From positions 3,502 to 67,501 of the forward strand of contig JBPOIH010000008.1 in the NCBI GenBank assembly GCA_052034685.1: a stretch of DNA of 64,000 bases, given 5' to 3'. Source of the DNA: Patescibacteria group bacterium. Lineage in GTDB: Bacteria; Patescibacteriota; Saccharimonadia; Saccharimonadales; CAYUUR01. Of this stretch, positions 14,848-53,019 are shown in pieces; within the stretch, counting starts at the first letter, position 1; each line of letters starts with the position of its first letter. The translations under genes and the position numbers were made by a program. The notes under the pieces were generated by a model, which was given only the letters and a program-made list of their open reading frames with translations, did not search any database and was not told the origin of the DNA.

Positions 14848-15771
14848 CTAATCCTGTTGGTGTCGGTGGTATTTCTCGTGGACTGATTTGAGATGTGGGT
14901 CTGTTACGTGTGTATAGATCTGCGTTGTTGCGATGTTACTGTGGCCGAGCAAGGCTTGTACCGATCGCAGATCAGCGCCATTCATCAGGAGGTCTGTAGC
15001 AAAGCTGTGCCGCAGGGTATGAGGTGATACATGCTTGGTGATGCCAGCTAATAGGGCATAGCGTGCCACCATACGTTGGATGCTGCGAGCGGTGAGGCGA
15101 TTGTAGTTGCCAGAAGTATTCACTGCTTTAGCGCCACCACGACCGTGCCTAATGAAGAGCGCAGGTAGGGTGTCTTCTCGCTGTGCGATATATTGCTCTA
15201 CCCATGATGCGGCCTCCGGACTAATAAAGATAGGTCGGTCTTTCTGGCCCTTACCGCGCACCATAAATTCTCTTCGTTTGAGGTTAATATGGTCGCGATT
15301 CAGCCCTACCAGCTCTGACACACGTAACCCACTTGAAAACAGCAGTTCCAAAATTGCCCGGTCGCGTAAGCCTGGCAGCGTGGTGGTGTCTGGCTGTCTG
15401 AACAGTGTCAGCACCTCATCGGCATTTAAAAAGGTGACCTGTTTTCGCTTGGTGCGTGCCAACTCGATCTTATCTGGGGCGAGCGTAGGTATGTCGCGCT
15501 TGGCGCAATATTTGAGGAAGCTGCGTAAGGCTATGAGGTGGTAGTTTTGGGTTGATTTTTGCAGCTCGTCGCTGACATTAGTACCTAAGCGGTTGAGCCA
15601 GAGGCGCCATTTGCGGACAAGCTCGGGGTCAATGTCAGAGACTTTTATATCGCCAGCATAGTCACTCAGGCGGGTGAGATAGTGGTCGTAGTTGGCAATA
15701 GTCTTCTGTGAACGGTTCTGCTCAATCTCGAGATACTCCAGAAAATCAGTTTTGGCCTTCGTAAACAACAT
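14848..15771 (-). CDS. Tyrosine recombinase, XerC/XerD family
   Basis: N-terminal SAM-like core-binding domain (FLEYLEIEQNRSQKTIANYDHYL). Catalytic residues in LFSSGLRVSEL, HTLRHSFAT and LLGHSNIATTQIYTHV. The start is set at the ATG at 15771, which has TACAAT 8 nt upstream. Confidence 0.85.
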   Translation of the reverse strand: MLFTKAKTDFLEYLEIEQNRSQKTIANYDHYLTRLSDYAGDIKVSDIDPELVRKWRLWLNRLGTNVSDELQKSTQNYHLIALRSFLKYCAKRDIPTLAPDKIELARTKRKQVTFLNADEVLTLFRQPDTTTLPGLRDRAILELLFSSGLRVSELVGLNRDHINLKRREFMVRGKGQKDRPIFISPEAASWVEQYIAQREDTLPALFIRHGRGGAKAVNTSGNYNRLTARSIQRMVARYALLAGITKHVSPHTLRHSFATDLLMNGADLRSVQALLGHSNIATTQIYTHVTDPHLKSVHEKYHRHQQD

Positions 15772-15884
15772 ATGCTTATATTGTACGACACGTTTGCGCC
15801 GCTGTCGCGCGGGAGTGGTTTGTGATGCAGCTCCACATCTGTTAGAATGTGCTTTTAGAAGCAAGAATTAAGCGAAGGGAACCA

Positions 15885-29724: not shown

Positions 29725-30171
29725 ATGGGGAAAATATCGATCAAAGAAGAGGGTGAGTCAACTGCTTCAGTAGCGTCTAAGCTAAAAGCTCGTATGACTA
29801 TGCGGAACATCAAACGAGGTTTAGCTGTATTTGCTGTATTTGCTGTAGGAGTTTTGGTCTGGCAGTACCTTGATGCACGGGCAGAACTGAAACGCTTCAA
29901 TGATCCGGCCGCAGCAGTTGCTCAAGAATCCGAGGATACCGTGAGTGAAGTCAGTAAGGTGATGGTTTTGCCGGCAGGTGAGCAGCCAATCCCTGCACTC
30001 GTTAAGGACGAAGCCAAGTTCGCCGACAACCCGGTTTTTGAAGGCGTAAAGAACGGTGACAAACTGCTGATTTACCAGGAAAAACGTAAGGTCATCATCT
30101 ACCGGCCATCTACCAAACAGATTGTAAACGTCATTACTATTGCTGCAAACCAAGAAGTGCCAGCGCAGTAA
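29725..30171 (+). CDS. Membrane-anchored hypothetical protein
   Basis: I prefer the ATG at 29725. One TM helix (LAVFAVFAVGVLVWQYL). No recognised motif. Confidence 0.45.
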   Translation: MGKISIKEEGESTASVASKLKARMTMRNIKRGLAVFAVFAVGVLVWQYLDARAELKRFNDPAAAVAQESEDTVSEVSKVMVLPAGEQPIPALVKDEAKFADNPVFEGVKNGDKLLIYQEKRKVIIYRPSTKQIVNVITIAANQEVPAQ

Positions 30172-30246
30172 TCGTTGCTTTTTATCTAGAATCTTGCTAT
30201 GATTGCCCCTGTTATTCGTTTGTTAACCAAGCGCAACAACAGATGC

Positions 30247-30323
30247 GGGCTCGTGGTGTAGAGGCCTAACATGCCTCCCTGTCACGGAGGAGATCGCCGG
30301 TTCGAATCCGGTCGGGCCCGCCA
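30247..30323 (+). tRNA. tRNA-Asp (anticodon GTC)
   Basis: Acceptor GGGCTCG/CGGGCCC, anticodon arm CCTCC-CTGTCAC-GGAGG, T-arm GCCGG-TTCGAAT-CCGGT, discriminator G, encoded CCA. Confidence 0.9.
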
Positions 30324-30324
30324 A
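30308..30324 (+). repeat. Direct repeat copy 1 (tRNA-Asp 3' end), CCGGTCGGGCCCGCCAA
   Basis: An identical 17-mer recurs at 31372-31388. Degenerate copies lie at 30491-30502, 31941-31947 and 33159-33170. Confidence 0.85.
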
Positions 30325-30363
30325 TGAAAATGAGTCATCCATGTGATGGCTCTTTTTCATTGG
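30321..30363 (+). terminator. Long hairpin immediately after tRNA-Asp (includes the CCA end)
   Basis: CCAATGAAAA (30321-30330) pairs with TTTTCATTGG (30354-30363). Inner GAG-CATC/GATG-CTC pairs. The U-tract is weak, so terminator function is uncertain. Confidence 0.45.
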
Positions 30364-30377
30364 CCGAGCTTTTCCCA

Positions 30378-30467
30378 GATTCGAACCGGCGATGCAGATT
30401 TGCCTTCAGGCAAAGATGCGAATCGCCAGTTCGGTCGGCAAGGGCTCTCGCAGGAGCTCGCTCCGAG
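30378..30467 (+). repeat. GC-rich composite repeat (X element) containing hairpin module A
   Basis: GATTCGAACCGGCGAT (30378-30393) is the reverse complement of tRNA-Asp 30293-30308. Hairpin GGCGAT...ATCGCC spans 30388-30427. The core CGCAGGAGCTCGCTCCGAG (30449-30467) recurs inverted at 46588-46606. Confidence 0.8.
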
Positions 30468-30550
30468 AAAGCCCGCAGCCGTGCGCAGAAGGTCGGGTCG
30501 CCTAAACGCCAGCCTGTCTGTCCGACAGAACGGACAAGGATCGCCAGCCA

Positions 30551-30579
30551 TTGATTAAATCAGGGTTTTATGGTATCAT
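30551..30579 (+). promoter_or_regulatory. Sigma70-type promoter of cassette gene 1
   Basis: TTGATT (30551-30556), a 17-nt spacer, then TGG-TATCAT (-10 at 30574-30579). Confidence 0.55.
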
Positions 30580-30645
30580 TTGTATTATTATGACGATACT
30601 TCTCAGGTACAACCAGAGTTATAACGTTTATGCACGGAGTTCAAC

Positions 30646-31200
30646 GTGCTGAAACTAATACCTCCCCAGGAACTCGGACCTGTAGATCCTGCAGGTATTC
30701 AAGAGTTCGGTACGATCTACGAAAGAGCAGGTTGGCCTTTTCATTCTGCCATGGACTCCACAGCTGAGGATATTCTACAACCGATTGTAACAACGGTTTT
30801 GGCTTATGACCCCAACGTAAAAGCTATGGCATTTGTAGCTGTCACAGGCGCAGTCCCAGTACATCGGTCACAGATAAATAAAGGCTGGCACTTTGATGGC
30901 CGTACCGTTGTAGCTGCGGACGTATTACCTACAGAATTTGCACTAGGCAGGTTACCGTCCAATCCGGCATTGAGTACATTTATGCGGATGGCAGGCAATA
31001 AAGTGTATGAGTCTCAAGCAGCACAGCGACACCTTTCTGATCTTAGTGATGATGAATTAGCGGTGAAGGGTATTGGGACGCACGCAGTACGCGCGAATAC
31101 TCTGAATTTTCTGAGCGAGCGCACTCTACATCGCTCCGGAATAAACAGAGGCGATGCACCAGTAAAACGTAATTTTCTGGGTGCGAGTTTATATTACTAG
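30646..31200 (+). CDS. Hypothetical protein (184 aa), cassette gene 1
   Basis: GTG start preceded by GGAG. No confident family match. The WHFDG ... TLHRSG spacing faintly resembles the HxD...H of 2OG/Fe(II) oxygenases (speculative). Confidence 0.5.
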   Translation: MLKLIPPQELGPVDPAGIQEFGTIYERAGWPFHSAMDSTAEDILQPIVTTVLAYDPNVKAMAFVAVTGAVPVHRSQINKGWHFDGRTVVAADVLPTEFALGRLPSNPALSTFMRMAGNKVYESQAAQRHLSDLSDDELAVKGIGTHAVRANTLNFLSERTLHRSGINRGDAPVKRNFLGASLYY

Positions 31201-31251
31201 ACGTTCGACAGGGCTTTTTACTTGGTCCGGTTTCGGTTGGTTTCAAAGCAA

Positions 31252-31288
31252 GGCGATGCAGCTTGCCCACGGCAAGATGCGAATCGCC
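31252..31288 (+). repeat. Hairpin module A' (second copy)
   Basis: GGCGAT-GCAG-CTTGCC cac GGCAAG-ATGCGA-ATCGCC. It has the same architecture as 30388-30427, with one compensatory pair change. Confidence 0.75.
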
Positions 31289-31371
31289 GGTACGTTCGTG
31301 ACGAGTGCGCACACCCGGCCTCCTGCAAGGAAGCCGGGGAGCACACGAGGAAACGGTTCTAAAAGAACCAC

Positions 31372-31388
31372 CCGGTCGGGCCCGCCAA
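31372..31388 (+). repeat. Direct repeat copy 2 of the tRNA-Asp 3' end (att-like)
   Basis: Exact 17-nt match to 30308-30324, immediately followed by a promoter. Confidence 0.85.
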
Positions 31389-31389
31389 G

Positions 31390-31418
31390 TTGACTTTACA
31401 TAGTGTTTATGCTATTAT
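31390..31418 (+). promoter_or_regulatory. Sigma70-type promoter of cassette gene 2 (leaderless transcript)
   Basis: TTGACT (31390-31395), a 17-nt spacer, TGC-TATTAT (-10 at 31413-31418), then the ATG at 31426, 7 nt after the -10. Confidence 0.65.
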
Positions 31419-31425
31419 AGTGAGT

Positions 31426-31866
31426 ATGAAAAGTTCCAGTGATTTAAGCACGGCTCAACGAGAAGTTCTTCATAGCAACCTGCTCGGTAGCATGGAGTCT
31501 GGTTTAGCTTCAAGATATTTCACTACCCAAAGAGAACACGCTAAACGCTTAGGTCGGCTTGCTAGTAATCCTAACGATCCTTTAGGCGACAAACTCCAAG
31601 AGCTTTCTACGGGCAGAGCGGTGGCAGCAGGGGCAGAGGCACCATTTATGTTTACGACACGACCAAGCAACATGGCCCAAGAACTAATCGCTCTAAAAGC
31701 TAATCCTCAAACAGGCGAGGTAATCCCTGGTTCGGATGTACAAATAGGTCTAATAGGTGGCCTAGCTGGCGAAGGTCGTCCAACTGGTTCATTTACCCCT
31801 GAAGATATTGCTTTGGCAACAGAGTCTATGGCTGCACAAGATGCCGTGGGCCTTCAAGTAAACTAA
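31426..31866 (+). CDS. Hypothetical protein (146 aa), cassette gene 2
   Basis: The ORF frame is open from 31390, but the TTG at 31390 is the -35 hexamer, so I prefer the ATG at 31426. No recognised motif. Confidence 0.5.
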   Translation: MKSSSDLSTAQREVLHSNLLGSMESGLASRYFTTQREHAKRLGRLASNPNDPLGDKLQELSTGRAVAAGAEAPFMFTTRPSNMAQELIALKANPQTGEVIPGSDVQIGLIGGLAGEGRPTGSFTPEDIALATESMAAQDAVGLQVN

Positions 31867-31988
31867 AGTAGCTCCAAACTTCCACGCGCACCCGGTCTCC
31901 TGCAAGGAAGCCGGGGAGCACGAGAGCAGATGTGCGTTACCCGGTCGTACAGCCTGTCTGCCCAACGAACAGACAAGGGTTCAAAAGA

Positions 31989-32017
31989 TTGACTTAATAT
32001 CATTTTTGTGGTAATAT
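31989..32017 (+). promoter_or_regulatory. Sigma70-type promoter of cassette gene 3 (fic)
   Basis: TTGACT (31989-31994), a 17-nt spacer, then TAATAT (32012-32017). Confidence 0.55.
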
Positions 32018-32053
32018 TACTGATGTAAATAACCAAAACAAAAAAGAACAACA

Positions 32054-33094
32054 ATGTCTGAAACAATCGCGCAAACACTCGAAACAAAGACAATCCCTAC
32101 CGTCGTCGCATTAATGGAGCGCCTTGGTGCAGCAGAGACATTTGCTACTCCTGAAGCAGCAAAACAGTTTATTGAAGCACACTCCTACGAAGACTTTTCG
32201 TCACTTCTTAATCGTCTCAACGGTCTTCAACGTAACATCCCGACTTCAGGTAGGCATATGGACGGTGGTGGCTTCGTACAACAAACAGGTGCGCTATCCG
32301 GTAGTAGCATTGAACATCAACCTCCGCTCAAAGAGGATCGCGAGCCACTCATGCGACACGCCTACGAAGCCGCTCAGCAAGCCCCGTCACCTGAAGACGC
32401 TGCTCTTATTCTGGGTCTATCCATTAACGCTATCCACCCTTACGAAGATGGAAACGGTAGAACAAGCAGATTTACTTACATGCTTCTTGAACACGGCTAT
32501 AATGGAACCGACGAAGACAATGGTATATACTCTTCTTTGCTAGAAAATACAAGAGGTCGTGAACTTGTCGATCTTGATCCTTCACGTTCTAATCTAGACT
32601 ATTGGTGTGCACTTCTAGCGACAGCAAAAAGCGCCGAAGAGGTTGGCTATAATGGCCCTATCCCTACTTTCATATGGGGTGCGTTTGGCGATGCATTTGC
32701 AGGTGAGTATAGTCCAGCATTTGAAGGTGAGTATAGTCCAGAAAACATTGCTGTCAATGAGACTATTTCGAATGAAAGCAGAAAGAAACTGTATCAATCA
32801 ATTACCGACAAGGCGGAGCTCTCTGCGCTACCTGCAATGCTTCGCCTTATTAAAGATAAGGGGCTCGACCCAAGTGATTTCATTGAGCATTACCCCGCAG
32901 ATCCAGACTTACCCAGAAGTCGTGATCGCACTTTTCTCAAAGGTGATGAACTTATACCCTTGCTTAGTGAAAGGGATATTGACTTCGTCTACGACGAGTC
33001 TTTCAAGGAGCGTCGCAATTATGTCCTCGCACTCACTACCCTACCGGAGAGCATCATGACTCAACTAAAAGACTTTTATCGCCCAAAGCTATGA
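32054..33094 (+). CDS. Fic/DOC family protein (putative AMPylase), cassette gene 3
   Basis: The core motif HPYEDGNGRTSR matches HxFx(D/E)GNGRxxR, with Tyr in place of Phe. A tandem duplication encodes GEYSPAFE-GEYSPEN (32701-32740). Confidence 0.8.
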   Translation: MSETIAQTLETKTIPTVVALMERLGAAETFATPEAAKQFIEAHSYEDFSSLLNRLNGLQRNIPTSGRHMDGGGFVQQTGALSGSSIEHQPPLKEDREPLMRHAYEAAQQAPSPEDAALILGLSINAIHPYEDGNGRTSRFTYMLLEHGYNGTDEDNGIYSSLLENTRGRELVDLDPSRSNLDYWCALLATAKSAEEVGYNGPIPTFIWGAFGDAFAGEYSPAFEGEYSPENIAVNETISNESRKKLYQSITDKAELSALPAMLRLIKDKGLDPSDFIEHYPADPDLPRSRDRTFLKGDELIPLLSERDIDFVYDESFKERRNYVLALTTLPESIMTQLKDFYRPKL

Positions 33095-33285
33095 GCAGAA
33101 AACGAACACGAAGCCGTGTAATTCTAACTTTCTTGAGCATAAAAGTTCCACATTCCCTCCGGTTCGGCCCATCAAATGTGTTTCTTTCTGCTCGTGTTTA
33201 CGCAATACATGCAGTAGTTTCAATGAATCTAGTTCGGACTATTGGGCACGGCGCGAGATGGTAGGATGTTTGCTATTATGAATAT

Positions 33286-34257
33286 ATGCATGACTTAAAC
33301 AAAGATCTGGAAGTAATCAGGTCTCAACAGCTTGCCAACGGCTTATGTCTGGCCGGTGATGGTCCGAACTACCAGCATGTCTGGATACGAGACAATGTCT
33401 ATGTTGCGCTGGCCTTGCAGGAATTCGGTCAGAACAAAGAGGCCGCTCGAGCTTACGAAGCGCTTTGCGTGATCATAGCCAAGTACCATTTACTGCTTGA
33501 GAGAAATACTTACCCAGTCGAAATCGATCAAATATTGCCGCCGCGCTTTACTGCTGATGGTTCAATAGTTGATGGCAAATGGAGCAATAAACAACACGAC
33601 GCTGTGGGAGTGCTTTTGTTTGGGCTTGGTCAGCTGCACCGCACTAACCAACCGCTACTGACGAGTGAAATGAAAAAAGTTTGCCAACAGCTAGTTCATT
33701 ACCTGGAGACATGCCAGTACTTTCGTGATGCCGACAATGGTATGTGGGAAGAAGTGTCTGCACTGCACGCATCGTCGTTGGCTGCCTGTATTAAGGGTAT
33801 TGAGAGCGTGGCCGGGTTTTGCGATCATGATGAGCACATGCTTGAACTAGCAAAACAGAATCTAGAGAATTTGTTGCCGAAAGAGAGCGTTCGGCATGAG
33901 GTTGACTTGGCGCAGTTGTCTCTGTTGTGGCCGTACGGCTATAAGCGCCCTGGCATTGTAGCGGCTATCGAAAGTGCGTTACTTCGCGAACACGGAGTGA
34001 TCCGTTACATTGGAGATACGTATGAAGCCAAGGACGGCGAAGAACCGCAGTGGGTTATGGGGTTGCCATGGCTCGGGATTGCTAACTTTGAACTAGGTAA
34101 TGTTGACAAGGCCAAAGAATATTTGCGTCGAACAGAAACGTTGTACACCAAGAACGGGTTGCCTGAGTCGTATCTAGCCAATAATAAACAGTGCTCACAT
34201 ACGCCTTTGGCTTGGTCGCATGCGATGGCTCTTGTGCTGCGCAGCAAGTTAGCATAA
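33286..34257 (+). CDS. Glycoside hydrolase family 15-like (glucoamylase-related)
   Basis: WIRDNVY, NKQHDAVG, NGMWEEV (catalytic Glu region) and GLPESY, in GH15 (alpha/alpha)6-barrel order. TATTAT box 6 nt upstream of the ATG. Confidence 0.65.
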   Translation: MHDLNKDLEVIRSQQLANGLCLAGDGPNYQHVWIRDNVYVALALQEFGQNKEAARAYEALCVIIAKYHLLLERNTYPVEIDQILPPRFTADGSIVDGKWSNKQHDAVGVLLFGLGQLHRTNQPLLTSEMKKVCQQLVHYLETCQYFRDADNGMWEEVSALHASSLAACIKGIESVAGFCDHDEHMLELAKQNLENLLPKESVRHEVDLAQLSLLWPYGYKRPGIVAAIESALLREHGVIRYIGDTYEAKDGEEPQWVMGLPWLGIANFELGNVDKAKEYLRRTETLYTKNGLPESYLANNKQCSHTPLAWSHAMALVLRSKLA

Positions 34258-46537: not shown

Positions 46538-46552
46538 TGGTAGGCGATAGAG
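46538..46552 (-). repeat. Fragment copy of the tRNA-Val 3' end
   Basis: TGGTAGGCGATAGAG versus TGGTGGGCGATAGAG at 46703-46717 (14 of 15 identical). Confidence 0.7.
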
Positions 46553-46587
46553 CGTAGCGGACTTTGTCCTTTTTCGCCGCAACCATG

Positions 46588-46653
46588 CTCGGAGCGAGCT
46601 CCTGCGCGTGGCCTTGCTTCACCGAACCTCGGCTACGCCGTACGGTTCGAATC
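46588..46653 (-). repeat. Inverted copy of the X element found downstream of tRNA-Asp
   Basis: Reverse complement matches 30378-30467: GATTCGAACCG, GTTCGGT, GCAAGG and the 19-nt core CGCAGGAGCTCGCTCCGAG. The variable hairpin is replaced by CGGC gta GCCG. Confidence 0.8.
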
Positions 46654-46671
46654 GATCGTATGTAAACCAAG

Positions 46672-46700
46672 TAAAAACCCGGCCATAAGCCGGGCCTTTA
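46672..46700 (-). terminator. Intrinsic terminator of tRNA-Val
   Basis: On the minus strand: CCCGGC ttatg GCCGGG followed by TTTTT. Confidence 0.8.
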
Positions 46701-46702
46701 CT

Positions 46703-46779
46703 TGGTGGGCGATAGAGGATTCGAACCTCTCACCTCGTCAACGTCAATGACGCGCTCTAGCCAAATGAGCTAATCGCCC
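46703..46779 (-). tRNA. tRNA-Val (anticodon GAC)
   Basis: Reverse complement GGGCGAT-TA-GCTC...GAGC-G-CGTCA-TTGACGT-TGACG-AGGTG-AGAGG-TTCGAAT-CCTCT-ATCGCCC-A-CCA. Confidence 0.9.
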
Positions 46780-52857: not shown

Positions 52858-52870
52858 TTCTGTTTATAAA

Positions 52871-52935
52871 GGTCGGGATGACAAGACTTGAACCTGCGAC
52901 CTCACGGCCCCCAGCCGTACAAGGGGTCCCCACAA
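52871..52935 (-). pseudogene. Truncated tRNA-Pro(GGG)-like 3' fragment (no acceptor 5' strand or D-arm)
   Basis: Reverse complement gives TACGG-CTGGGGG-CCGTG-AGGTC-GCAGG-TTCAAGT-CTTGT-CATCCCG-A-CC. No complementary 5' acceptor strand lies upstream. Confidence 0.65.
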
Positions 52936-52943
52936 AATCTTTA

Positions 52944-53019
52944 TGGTCAGGGTGAGAGGACTTGAACCTCCGGTCTCCGGACCCCCAGCCCGGCGCTTTA
53001 CCAACTAAGCTACACCCTG
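52944..53019 (-). tRNA. tRNA-Pro (anticodon GGG)
   Basis: Reverse complement CAGGGTG-TA-GCTT...AAGC-G-CCGGG-CTGGGGG-TCCGG-AGACC-GGAGG-TTCAAGT-CCTCT-CACCCTG-A-CCA. Confidence 0.85.

Follow-up and report, generated by a model that had tools for sequence, protein, structure and literature searches.

The locus described here extends from the gene for tRNA-Asp(gtc) to a glycoside hydrolase family 15 (GH15)-like gene and lies in a 64,000-nt stretch of DNA from a Saccharibacteria genome (Patescibacteria), all of which was analysed and is called the window. Between the two flanks there is an array of three protein-coding genes, each with its own promoter, separated by direct copies of the tRNA 3' end (the tail, designated as D) and by copies of a structured element designated as E. 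Sequences fetched for comparison from metagenomes and metagenome-assembled genomes (MAGs) are labelled L with a three-digit number. The array reads tRNA / terminator-E1-D' / C-P1-gene1 / E2-D / P2-gene2 / E3-D'' / C-P3-Fic / decayed D / GH15, with the following features.

30247..30323, +, tRNA-Asp(gtc) with encoded CCA, the anchor of the array (ARAGORN; Rfam tRNA, 59.7 bits)
30308..30324, +, D0, the native tRNA 3' end: T-stem 3' strand, acceptor 3' strand, G73, CCA, and one further base
30320..30364, +, intrinsic terminator, the 3' arm of which pairs back onto GCCAA and the A-run (inverted repeat I2; terminator scan)
30365..30505, +, E1 (covariance model R1, 54.6 bits, E 6e-16; orthologues in L002, L003, and L133)
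30375-30393, inverted T-arm copy of E1
30394-30419, inner hairpin of E1
30420-30437, direct copy of the T-stem 5' strand in E1
30442-30474, rod X of E1, with the 19-mer at 30449-30467
30491-30505, D', decayed tail copy of E1
30510..30545, +, small hairpin module C1 between tail copy and promoter (direct repeat D9; paralogue at 31950-31982)
30551..30579, +, promoter P1, TTGATT-17-TATCAT with TG
30646..31200, +, gene1, 184 aa
31211..31388, +, E2 (R1, 19.8 bits, E 4e-4)
31211-31226, 3' half of a terminator in E2
31227-31249, decayed inverted tail of E2
31252-31295, hairpin of E2
31314-31338, 25-nt B hairpin, which replaces the apical hairpin of the E2 rod
31372-31388, D, exact tail copy of E2
31390..31418, +, promoter P2, TTGACT-17-TATTAT with TG, starting 2 nt past D
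31426..31866, +, gene2, 146 aa
31880..31946, +, E3, partial: B-type rod (31884-31926), tail, and shortened tail copy D'' (31939-31946) (direct repeat D1, 90%)
31950..31982, +, hairpin module C3
31989..32017, +, promoter P3, TTGACT-17-TAATAT with TG
32054..33094, +, Fic-domain gene, 346 aa
33159..33175, +, tail-like copy, decayed, marking the far end of the variable region
33286..34257, +, GH15-like gene, conserved, bounding the region distally (Pfam PF00723; synteny in L002, L003, and L133)

Tail copies, promoters, and genes of the array

The 17-mer CCGGTCGGGCCCGCCAA, which comprises the last nucleotides of the tRNA including CCA and one further base, occurs at exactly two sites in 64 kb, 30308-30324 and 31372-31388. 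This repeat had been reported in an earlier note made from the sequence alone, and it holds: no further site exists in the window within three mismatches, and 0.09 were expected by chance. Of the three degenerate copies named in the same note, the one at 30491-30505 matches in 11 of 15 bases and is taken as real on the basis of homology, as the orthologous position in L133 matches in 14 of 15 and L003 is also close. The second one, CCCGGTCG, is judged real on the same grounds, since it lies in a 31-nt stretch identical to the E tail of L133, which runs on into a near-full copy; its position, given as 31941-31947, was one base off and is corrected to 31939-31946. The third, at 33159-33175, has 4 mismatches in 15-16 positions, which is background level by itself, but it is located at a breakpoint between strains (33150-33156, window versus L125 and L133).

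Taken together, there are four plus-strand tail copies in the window versus 0.31 expected, and five in 3.5 kb of L133 versus 0.29 expected, one of the latter being exact over 14 nt. In relatives, tail copies are found at nearly every module boundary between tRNA-Asp and the GH15 gene. When 58 non-redundant loci were compared, 52 direct tail copies were counted downstream of the tRNA versus four inverted ones, and upstream, over the same length, the two strands together had 11 copies.

The three promoters follow the pattern TTGAyT-17-TAnnAT, with the 17-nt spacer as claimed before, and in all three there is also an extended -10 TG. Two of them had been said to start within 2 nt of a repeat; this is true for P2 only (31388 to 31390), and the other gaps are 42-49 nt. 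Promoters of unrelated cassettes are similar over about 35 nt including the spacer (TTGAyTTAAT..CAcTTTTGTGGTAtTAT), as seen at 31989-32020 in the window, 188-225 in L133, 603-645 in L137, and 8718-8750 in L002. A common cassette behind these promoters was considered and rejected, as the 180-aa protein of L133 and the 223-aa protein of L137 show no homology. The promoter may be part of the repeated platform and not of the cargo. Beyond the tail copy, the spacers have further modules in common, and these are ordered as hairpin A, hairpin B, D, hairpin C, and promoter. Copies of hairpin A are at 30388-30437 and 31252-31298, those of hairpin B at 31308-31349 and 31885-31926 (90% identical), and those of hairpin C at 30510-30526 and 31950-31966.

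All three genes were confirmed at the coordinates first given. The last one belongs to the Fic/Doc family according to Pfam PF02661 (3.9e-8) and the motif HPYEDGNGRTSR of the HxFx(D/E)GNGRxxR type; it has 33 homologues and weak similarity to SoFic (PADLOC). The products of gene1 and gene2, to which the earlier note assigned no function, have no match in Pfam, NCBIfam, PADLOC, or PHROGs. Gene1 represents a rare family without a recognised domain, its best distant relative (L139) being 35% identical (E 5e-14) and having no E or tail copy in its context, and the structure prediction is unusable (pLDDT 33). Gene2 has no domain either, and three relatives were found in 5.8 billion proteins. Cargo elsewhere includes glyoxalase, HAD, PadR, and PNPOx-like proteins and orphans.

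Element E behind tRNA genes

Rather than being bare scars, the tail copies form the 3' ends of a conserved element, E, of about 130-190 nt. A 19-nt stretch of E1 (30449-30467) is identical to a site past tRNA-Val(gac) on the other strand (46588-46606), where the same layout ends in a tail copy specific to tRNA-Val, in which 2 of 16 positions are mismatched. When metagenomes were scanned for CRCAGGAGCTYGCTCCGAG, at least 120 stretches matched, and the E family recurs in more than 100 metagenome loci, behind many different tRNA genes of Saccharibacteria-like genomes. Among the matches listed for the window and the fetched loci, a tRNA gene on the same strand ends 80-130 nt upstream in 65 of 128 matches to the 19-mer, and these 65 loci represent at least 25 isoacceptors. 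The last 16 nt of the tRNA recur exactly in 31 of the 65 loci and with no more than two mismatches in 39, while the shuffled mean is about 7.5 mismatches. The tail copy, which corresponds to the last 18-19 nt of the tRNA, is positioned 20-45 nt after the 19-mer, and the repeat spans T-loop A58/59 to CCA, with CCA as the right edge.

Past the tRNA, the first part is a terminator, the 3' arm of which pairs with ACCA and the A-run. It is followed by an imperfect inverted copy of the 3' third of the cognate tRNA, an inner hairpin, a segment in which the variable loop, T-stem 5' strand, and TTCG are copied in direct orientation, a rod, sometimes an extra small hairpin, and the exact tail. The rod is inserted at the equivalent of T-loop position 57/58. 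Both copied segments match the cognate tRNA better than non-cognate ones (inverted segment, 11.3 versus 7.6, p 2e-19; direct segment, 9.1 versus 6.5, p 4e-16). In 101 distinct sequences, pairing in the rod was found in 92% of cells versus 71% in shuffles, and the covariation score of 0.498, versus 0.126 when shuffled, was reached by none of 500 shuffles, with slid controls at 0.08 or below. In the rod, the internal loop is invariant, with C-R-C-A opposite G-A-G; also conserved are a C.A mismatch and the cap, GGAG-CUYG-CUCC. All 65 copies of E have the same orientation relative to the tRNA and none is inverted; an invertible switch was rejected on this basis. E falls into rough subtypes, any one of which is found at several tRNA types, and different subtypes can share one tRNA type; therefore, the E family has been retargeted among tRNAs. 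Folding energies of the plus and minus strands are −50.0 and −49.6 kcal/mol and G-U pairs number 147 and 139, i.e., there is no asymmetry. The fold z-scores, modest throughout, range from −2 to −3.7 in the Asp copies of E and are about 0 in the Val copy.

The covariance model R1, built from E, was run on the window and gave these matches.

46538-46636, −, 75 bits, E after tRNA-Val
30419-30511, +, 54.6 bits, E1
31280-31387, +, 19.8 bits (E 4e-4), E2
31857-31964, +, 7 bits, partial copy E3

The low score of E2 can be compared with its orthologue in L127, which stands right after tRNA-Asp, has an intact terminator and a canonical rod, and scores 48 bits. In the window, the apical hairpin of E2 is replaced by the 25-nt B hairpin of E3 (31314-31338 versus 31891-31915; 33 nt, 97%), whereas L127 retains the canonical cap (170-195) with a compensatory GAAG/CUUC change. 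The inverted tail copy of E2 has four changes in 14 nt relative to L127. E is a conserved structured element under selection, with compensatory changes in its orthologous copies.

Searches of collections found no counterpart of E. Rfam 15, searched with 30100-33400 on both strands at E ≤ 1, matched the tRNA only. Scans of IMG/VR with the 19-mer, in its window variant and degenerate, and with the B hairpin gave zero matches; blastn of the tRNA plus E against a phage collection gave only tRNA-Asp matches, and blastn of E against a plasmid collection gave none. E is described nowhere in the literature searched, and it is apparently previously undescribed. Group I introns in Patescibacteria tRNA genes (PMC13011429) concern position 35/36 and are unrelated to E.

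The Val locus of the window represents a second platform.

46538..46779, −, tRNA-Val(gac) (46703-46779), terminator, and full E with a Val-specific tail (R1, 75 bits)

A promoter and a small 67-aa open reading frame (ORF) come after this E. The CCA end is encoded by 113 of 114 tRNA genes in the window and fetched loci, most of which are then followed by a terminator with its 3' arm pairing to ACCA and the A-run. About 25 nt past the intact tRNA-Pro(ggg) (52944-53019), there is a truncated second tRNA-Pro-like piece (about 52860-52943, −) consisting of the anticodon arm, T arm, and acceptor 3' strand, with no E there; it looks like a displaced tRNA fragment or an att (attachment site) scar.

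Module content in close relatives

Variants at the strain level were retrieved by exact-protein look-ups; L002 and L003 are Saccharibacteria MAGs. Between tRNA-Asp and the GH15 gene, both of which are kept, at least seven modules were found in five arrangements among close relatives. The arrangements, with the window given first, are as follows.

Window: E1 / gene1 / E2 / gene2 / E3 / Fic
L126-L132: E2 / gene2 / E3 / Fic; without gene1 and E1
L125: Fic / 127 aa + glyoxalase / GH15
L133: E / 180-aa gene / Fic / E tail / 131 aa + glyoxalase / 127 aa
L002: E / Fic
L003: E / 131 aa + glyoxalase / 264 aa + 162 aa

An identical gene2 is present in seven samples (L126-L132, including NCBI CAZRVR010000138), in which tRNA-Asp is followed directly by the intact terminator and E2 and the remainder is 96-97% identical to the window. 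In L125 and L126, a module of a 127-aa gene and glyoxalase that is not in the window lies past Fic. L133 and L134 have another first gene, followed by a Fic gene 88-89% identical to that of the window, an E tail, the 131-aa gene with glyoxalase, and the 127-aa gene. The 264-aa gene of L003 is HAD-like. Modules in common keep the same order across all arrangements.

Several junctions fall at the tRNA end or at copies of it. Divergence between the window and L127 starts right after GCCAA of the tRNA, and the junction in L002 reads as D' of the window joined to D''. At tRNA-fMet, L004 and L101 are identical through the tRNA, E, and D, diverge exactly past ...CAACCA, carry different modules ending in further ...CCA copies, and rejoin after another ...CCA. 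L034 has three copies of E with single genes between them. Modules related to those of the window also occur behind other tRNAs. A homologue of gene2 (59% identical) is found in L135 behind an E with a tRNA-Glu-type tail, and a Fic homologue (54% identical) in the tRNA-Met array of L137 is preceded by the Asp-type remnant GGCCCGCCA (2020-2035), which suggests that a module can take its left tail copy along when it moves from the array of one tRNA to that of another.

The short-read contig with the window arrangement (L001/L124, Logan SRR34217542_154376) breaks inside E2 or the B hairpin. As repeated modules fragment assemblies, such arrays are probably under-represented in short-read metagenomes.

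The earlier note had named three findings that would speak for decayed scars or chance matches, and the comparison contradicts all of them. The genes are not invariant, with gene1 and E1 absent in L126-L132 and the glyoxalase module present in L125/L126; tail copies recur at the module boundaries of relatives, with five copies in L133; and cassettes do occur elsewhere, as gene2 does in L135. Serial accretion at a tRNA att site, as proposed there, agrees with strain-variable modules bounded by tails; what changes is that the repeats belong to the larger element E, and the recombination itself is read from the positions of junctions.

Origin of the array and comparison with known systems

The gene for tRNA-Asp heads a small, additive, and strain-variable array of promoter-bearing modules of one or two genes, bounded by direct copies of D, intact or decayed, and further copies of E accompany some of the modules. 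With a probability of about 0.55, to judge from where the junctions fall, the array arose by serial recombination at tail copies that act like att sites, catalysed by a recombinase acting in trans. Modules would be gained and lost by recombination at D as an att core, as in the tandem accretion of integrase-less elements at tRNA genes. The unit of tRNA, E, and D would form a stable platform, held in orthologous position with compensatory changes, and incoming modules would be placed behind it, so that the essential single-copy tRNA stays intact. Each module would bring its own sigma-70-type promoter and could therefore be expressed independently. The recombinase could be the Xer-like enzyme of the genome or an enzyme of an element absent here.

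The first of these candidates is the only gene recovered by a motif scan for tyrosine and serine recombinases in the window and about 700 kb of related loci.

14848..15864, −, Xer-like tyrosine recombinase (motif scan; Pfam PF00589, 4e-43; NCBIfam XerC/XerD/XerA, about 250 bits)

It lies 14 kb from the array and 630 nt from tRNA-Arg(cct). The claim that no integrase lies in or beside the array is right for the array itself, but the window does carry this enzyme. On the integron-integrase model, the protein scores 136.7 bits (cutoff 265) versus about 250 bits on the Xer models. Ten representatives of recurrent ORF families neighbouring E were ordinary genes in Pfam, with no recombinase among them. 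The Xer-like enzyme is a candidate for the trans-acting recombinase.

Several points weigh against serial recombination at the tails. The array has no linked recombinase, neither excised nor circular forms were seen, and no autonomous parent element with E or the 19-mer was found in IMG/VR or in the phage and plasmid collections. Some of the boundary copies are too decayed to be significant singly, and the right junction of the gene1 unit falls inside a terminator, not in a clean tail copy. The 25 tRNA-specific tails in one family would need either many specificities or a mechanism guided by structure or homology, and the Asp-type remnant in the tRNA-Met array of L137 does not fit an integration strictly dependent on tail identity. 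Finally, the repeated modules of E, D, and promoter could equally be portable homology for homologous recombination after natural transformation.

This last point is the core of an alternative that we consider unlikely, namely a flexible islet shaped by homologous recombination and local duplication alone, with a tandemly duplicated E-D-promoter unit, swaps between strains, and no site-specific step. The homology would be supplied by the conserved tRNA and GH15 flanks and the repeated modules. The ordered modules A-B-D-C-promoter common to the spacers are consistent with duplication of a unit, and the apical hairpin of E2, copied from E3, indicates gene conversion between copies of E; the likeness of the cassette promoters over about 35 nt, the constant order of modules in all arrangements, and an array with no linked recombinase are further points on its side. 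However, pure homologous replacement creates no new att-like copies, and direct tail copies multiply only downstream of the tRNA (52 versus four inverted there and 11 upstream). They also stand at the boundaries of unrelated modules, divergence between strains starts exactly at CCA, and members of the gene2 family follow Asp-type as well as Glu-type tails.

A more far-reaching form of recombination at the platform is put forward tentatively, as its odds are clearly poor. Saccharibacteria and related Patescibacteria would have an integron-like capture of genes with no adjacent integrase, in which the tRNA and E form the platform and E, perhaps as folded single-stranded DNA, is recognised by its structure by a host recombinase, e.g., the Xer-like one. 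Since E contains the target in both inverted and direct copies, and an asymmetric branch sits in the middle of the T-arm core, E would by analogy resemble folded single-stranded att sites; once folded, it would recreate the T-arm/acceptor duplex with the rod as an asymmetric marker in the core. The host recombinase would then insert or delete promoter-bearing one-gene cassettes behind many tRNA genes.

Lower still we place the explanation that E is primarily a structured non-coding RNA, a mimic of the tRNA minihelix matured at CCA and serving as a decoy, processing, or regulatory element, with the gene modules merely accumulating alongside. An RNA would account for the strong covariation of the rod with its invariant internal loop and CUUG-type cap, for the helix kept by compensatory changes in orthologous copies, and for the polarity fixed relative to the tRNA. 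CCA is the exact end of the tail, past which another terminator often lies, and minimum free energy folds often pair the 5' inverted copy with the tail in a closing helix like that of the acceptor and T-stem. Yet the strong intrinsic terminator directly before E leaves no space for a promoter, the two strands do not differ in folding energy or G-U counts, the conserved C.A mismatch of the plus strand would become a G.U pair if the minus strand were read, and Rfam has no match; the tail copies at module boundaries without E are left unexplained. That the gene row is fixed and syntenic, with repeats that match by chance or are decayed scars of no meaning, is very improbable: the copy at 33159-33175, and 31939-46 alone, are not significant by themselves, but the exact 17-mer was expected 0.09 times, the element recurs with covariation in more than 100 loci, and gene content varies among close relatives.

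Patescibacteria have tiny genomes with few recognisable mobile elements and mostly single-copy tRNA genes, and their acquisition of accessory genes is poorly understood. The locus represents a compact, recurring layout in which small genes with promoters of their own are gained or lost behind tRNA genes while the tRNAs stay undisrupted. As accretion anchored at a tRNA gene it is known in kind but new in form, reduced in size to one-gene units with promoters, and it includes an apparently undescribed conserved element. Should E be a recombination site, it would represent a new cassette system and a potential tool for gene insertion in bacteria that are hard to manipulate; should it be an RNA, the tRNA mimics would make up a new family in one-to-one correspondence with the cognate tRNAs.

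Among known systems, repetitive extragenic palindromes with their mosaic elements (REP/BIME) and miniature inverted-repeat transposable elements (MITEs) are similarly short, GC-rich, hairpin-forming, non-coding, and intergenic after genes. E differs from both in not being dispersed, as it is found only behind tRNA-like 3' ends, in one orientation, and with a target-specific sequence. MITEs differ further by their transposase-type terminal inverted repeats and short target duplication; E has neither, and its duplication is 18-19 nt or more.

Integrative mobile elements exploiting Xer (IMEX), such as CTXphi, use the host Xer enzyme on a folded single-stranded attP (PMC3442271) and likewise have no recombinase of their own. 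The att region of such elements is made of inverted imperfect copies of the target and folds with an asymmetric central bulge; E has an inverted copy of the 3' third of the cognate tRNA and may fold in a comparable way, although its z-scores are modest. A Xer-type enzyme is the only tyrosine recombinase in the window and would be the candidate to act on E. The target here is a tRNA 3' end and not a dif-like 28-mer, and phage and replication genes are missing.

Integron arrays, with folded single-stranded attC sites (PMC4792948, PMC2727003), are also rows of single, often orphan genes in one orientation. One imperfect palindromic element, conserved in structure more than in sequence, goes with each gene, and cassettes are present or absent among strains, with a platform at one end. 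Unlike in integrons, there is no intI beside the array, the cassettes carry their own promoters instead of being promoterless under Pc, and the platform is a tRNA gene, not attI with Pc. Inspected by eye, E has the T-loop-derived GGTTCGR and not the R/L-box GTTRRRY, and it is built from the neighbouring tRNA.

Islands seeded at tRNA genes, for which the tycheposon model has been described (bioRxiv 10.1101/2020.12.28.424599), and the tandem accretion of cis-mobilizable elements (CIME) are the remaining systems for comparison. The units here are much shorter in layout, with 0.5-1.2 kb, one or two genes, and an own consensus promoter abutting or near the repeat. Neither the window nor some 700 kb of related loci yielded an integrase or a hallmark mobility or replication gene, and a tRNA-mimicking structured element heads the array and recurs in it. 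Like a CIME, a unit is flanked by att-like copies and has no recombination and transfer genes. Unlike for a CIME, no related autonomous element from which it could derive was found in IMG/VR or in the phage and plasmid collections. As in the tRNA-seeded islands, the array is anchored at a tRNA 3' end, partial-tRNA direct repeats flank its units, the cargo comes without mobility genes, presence/absence polymorphism is found among close relatives, and the heterogeneity between strains is highest beside the tRNA.

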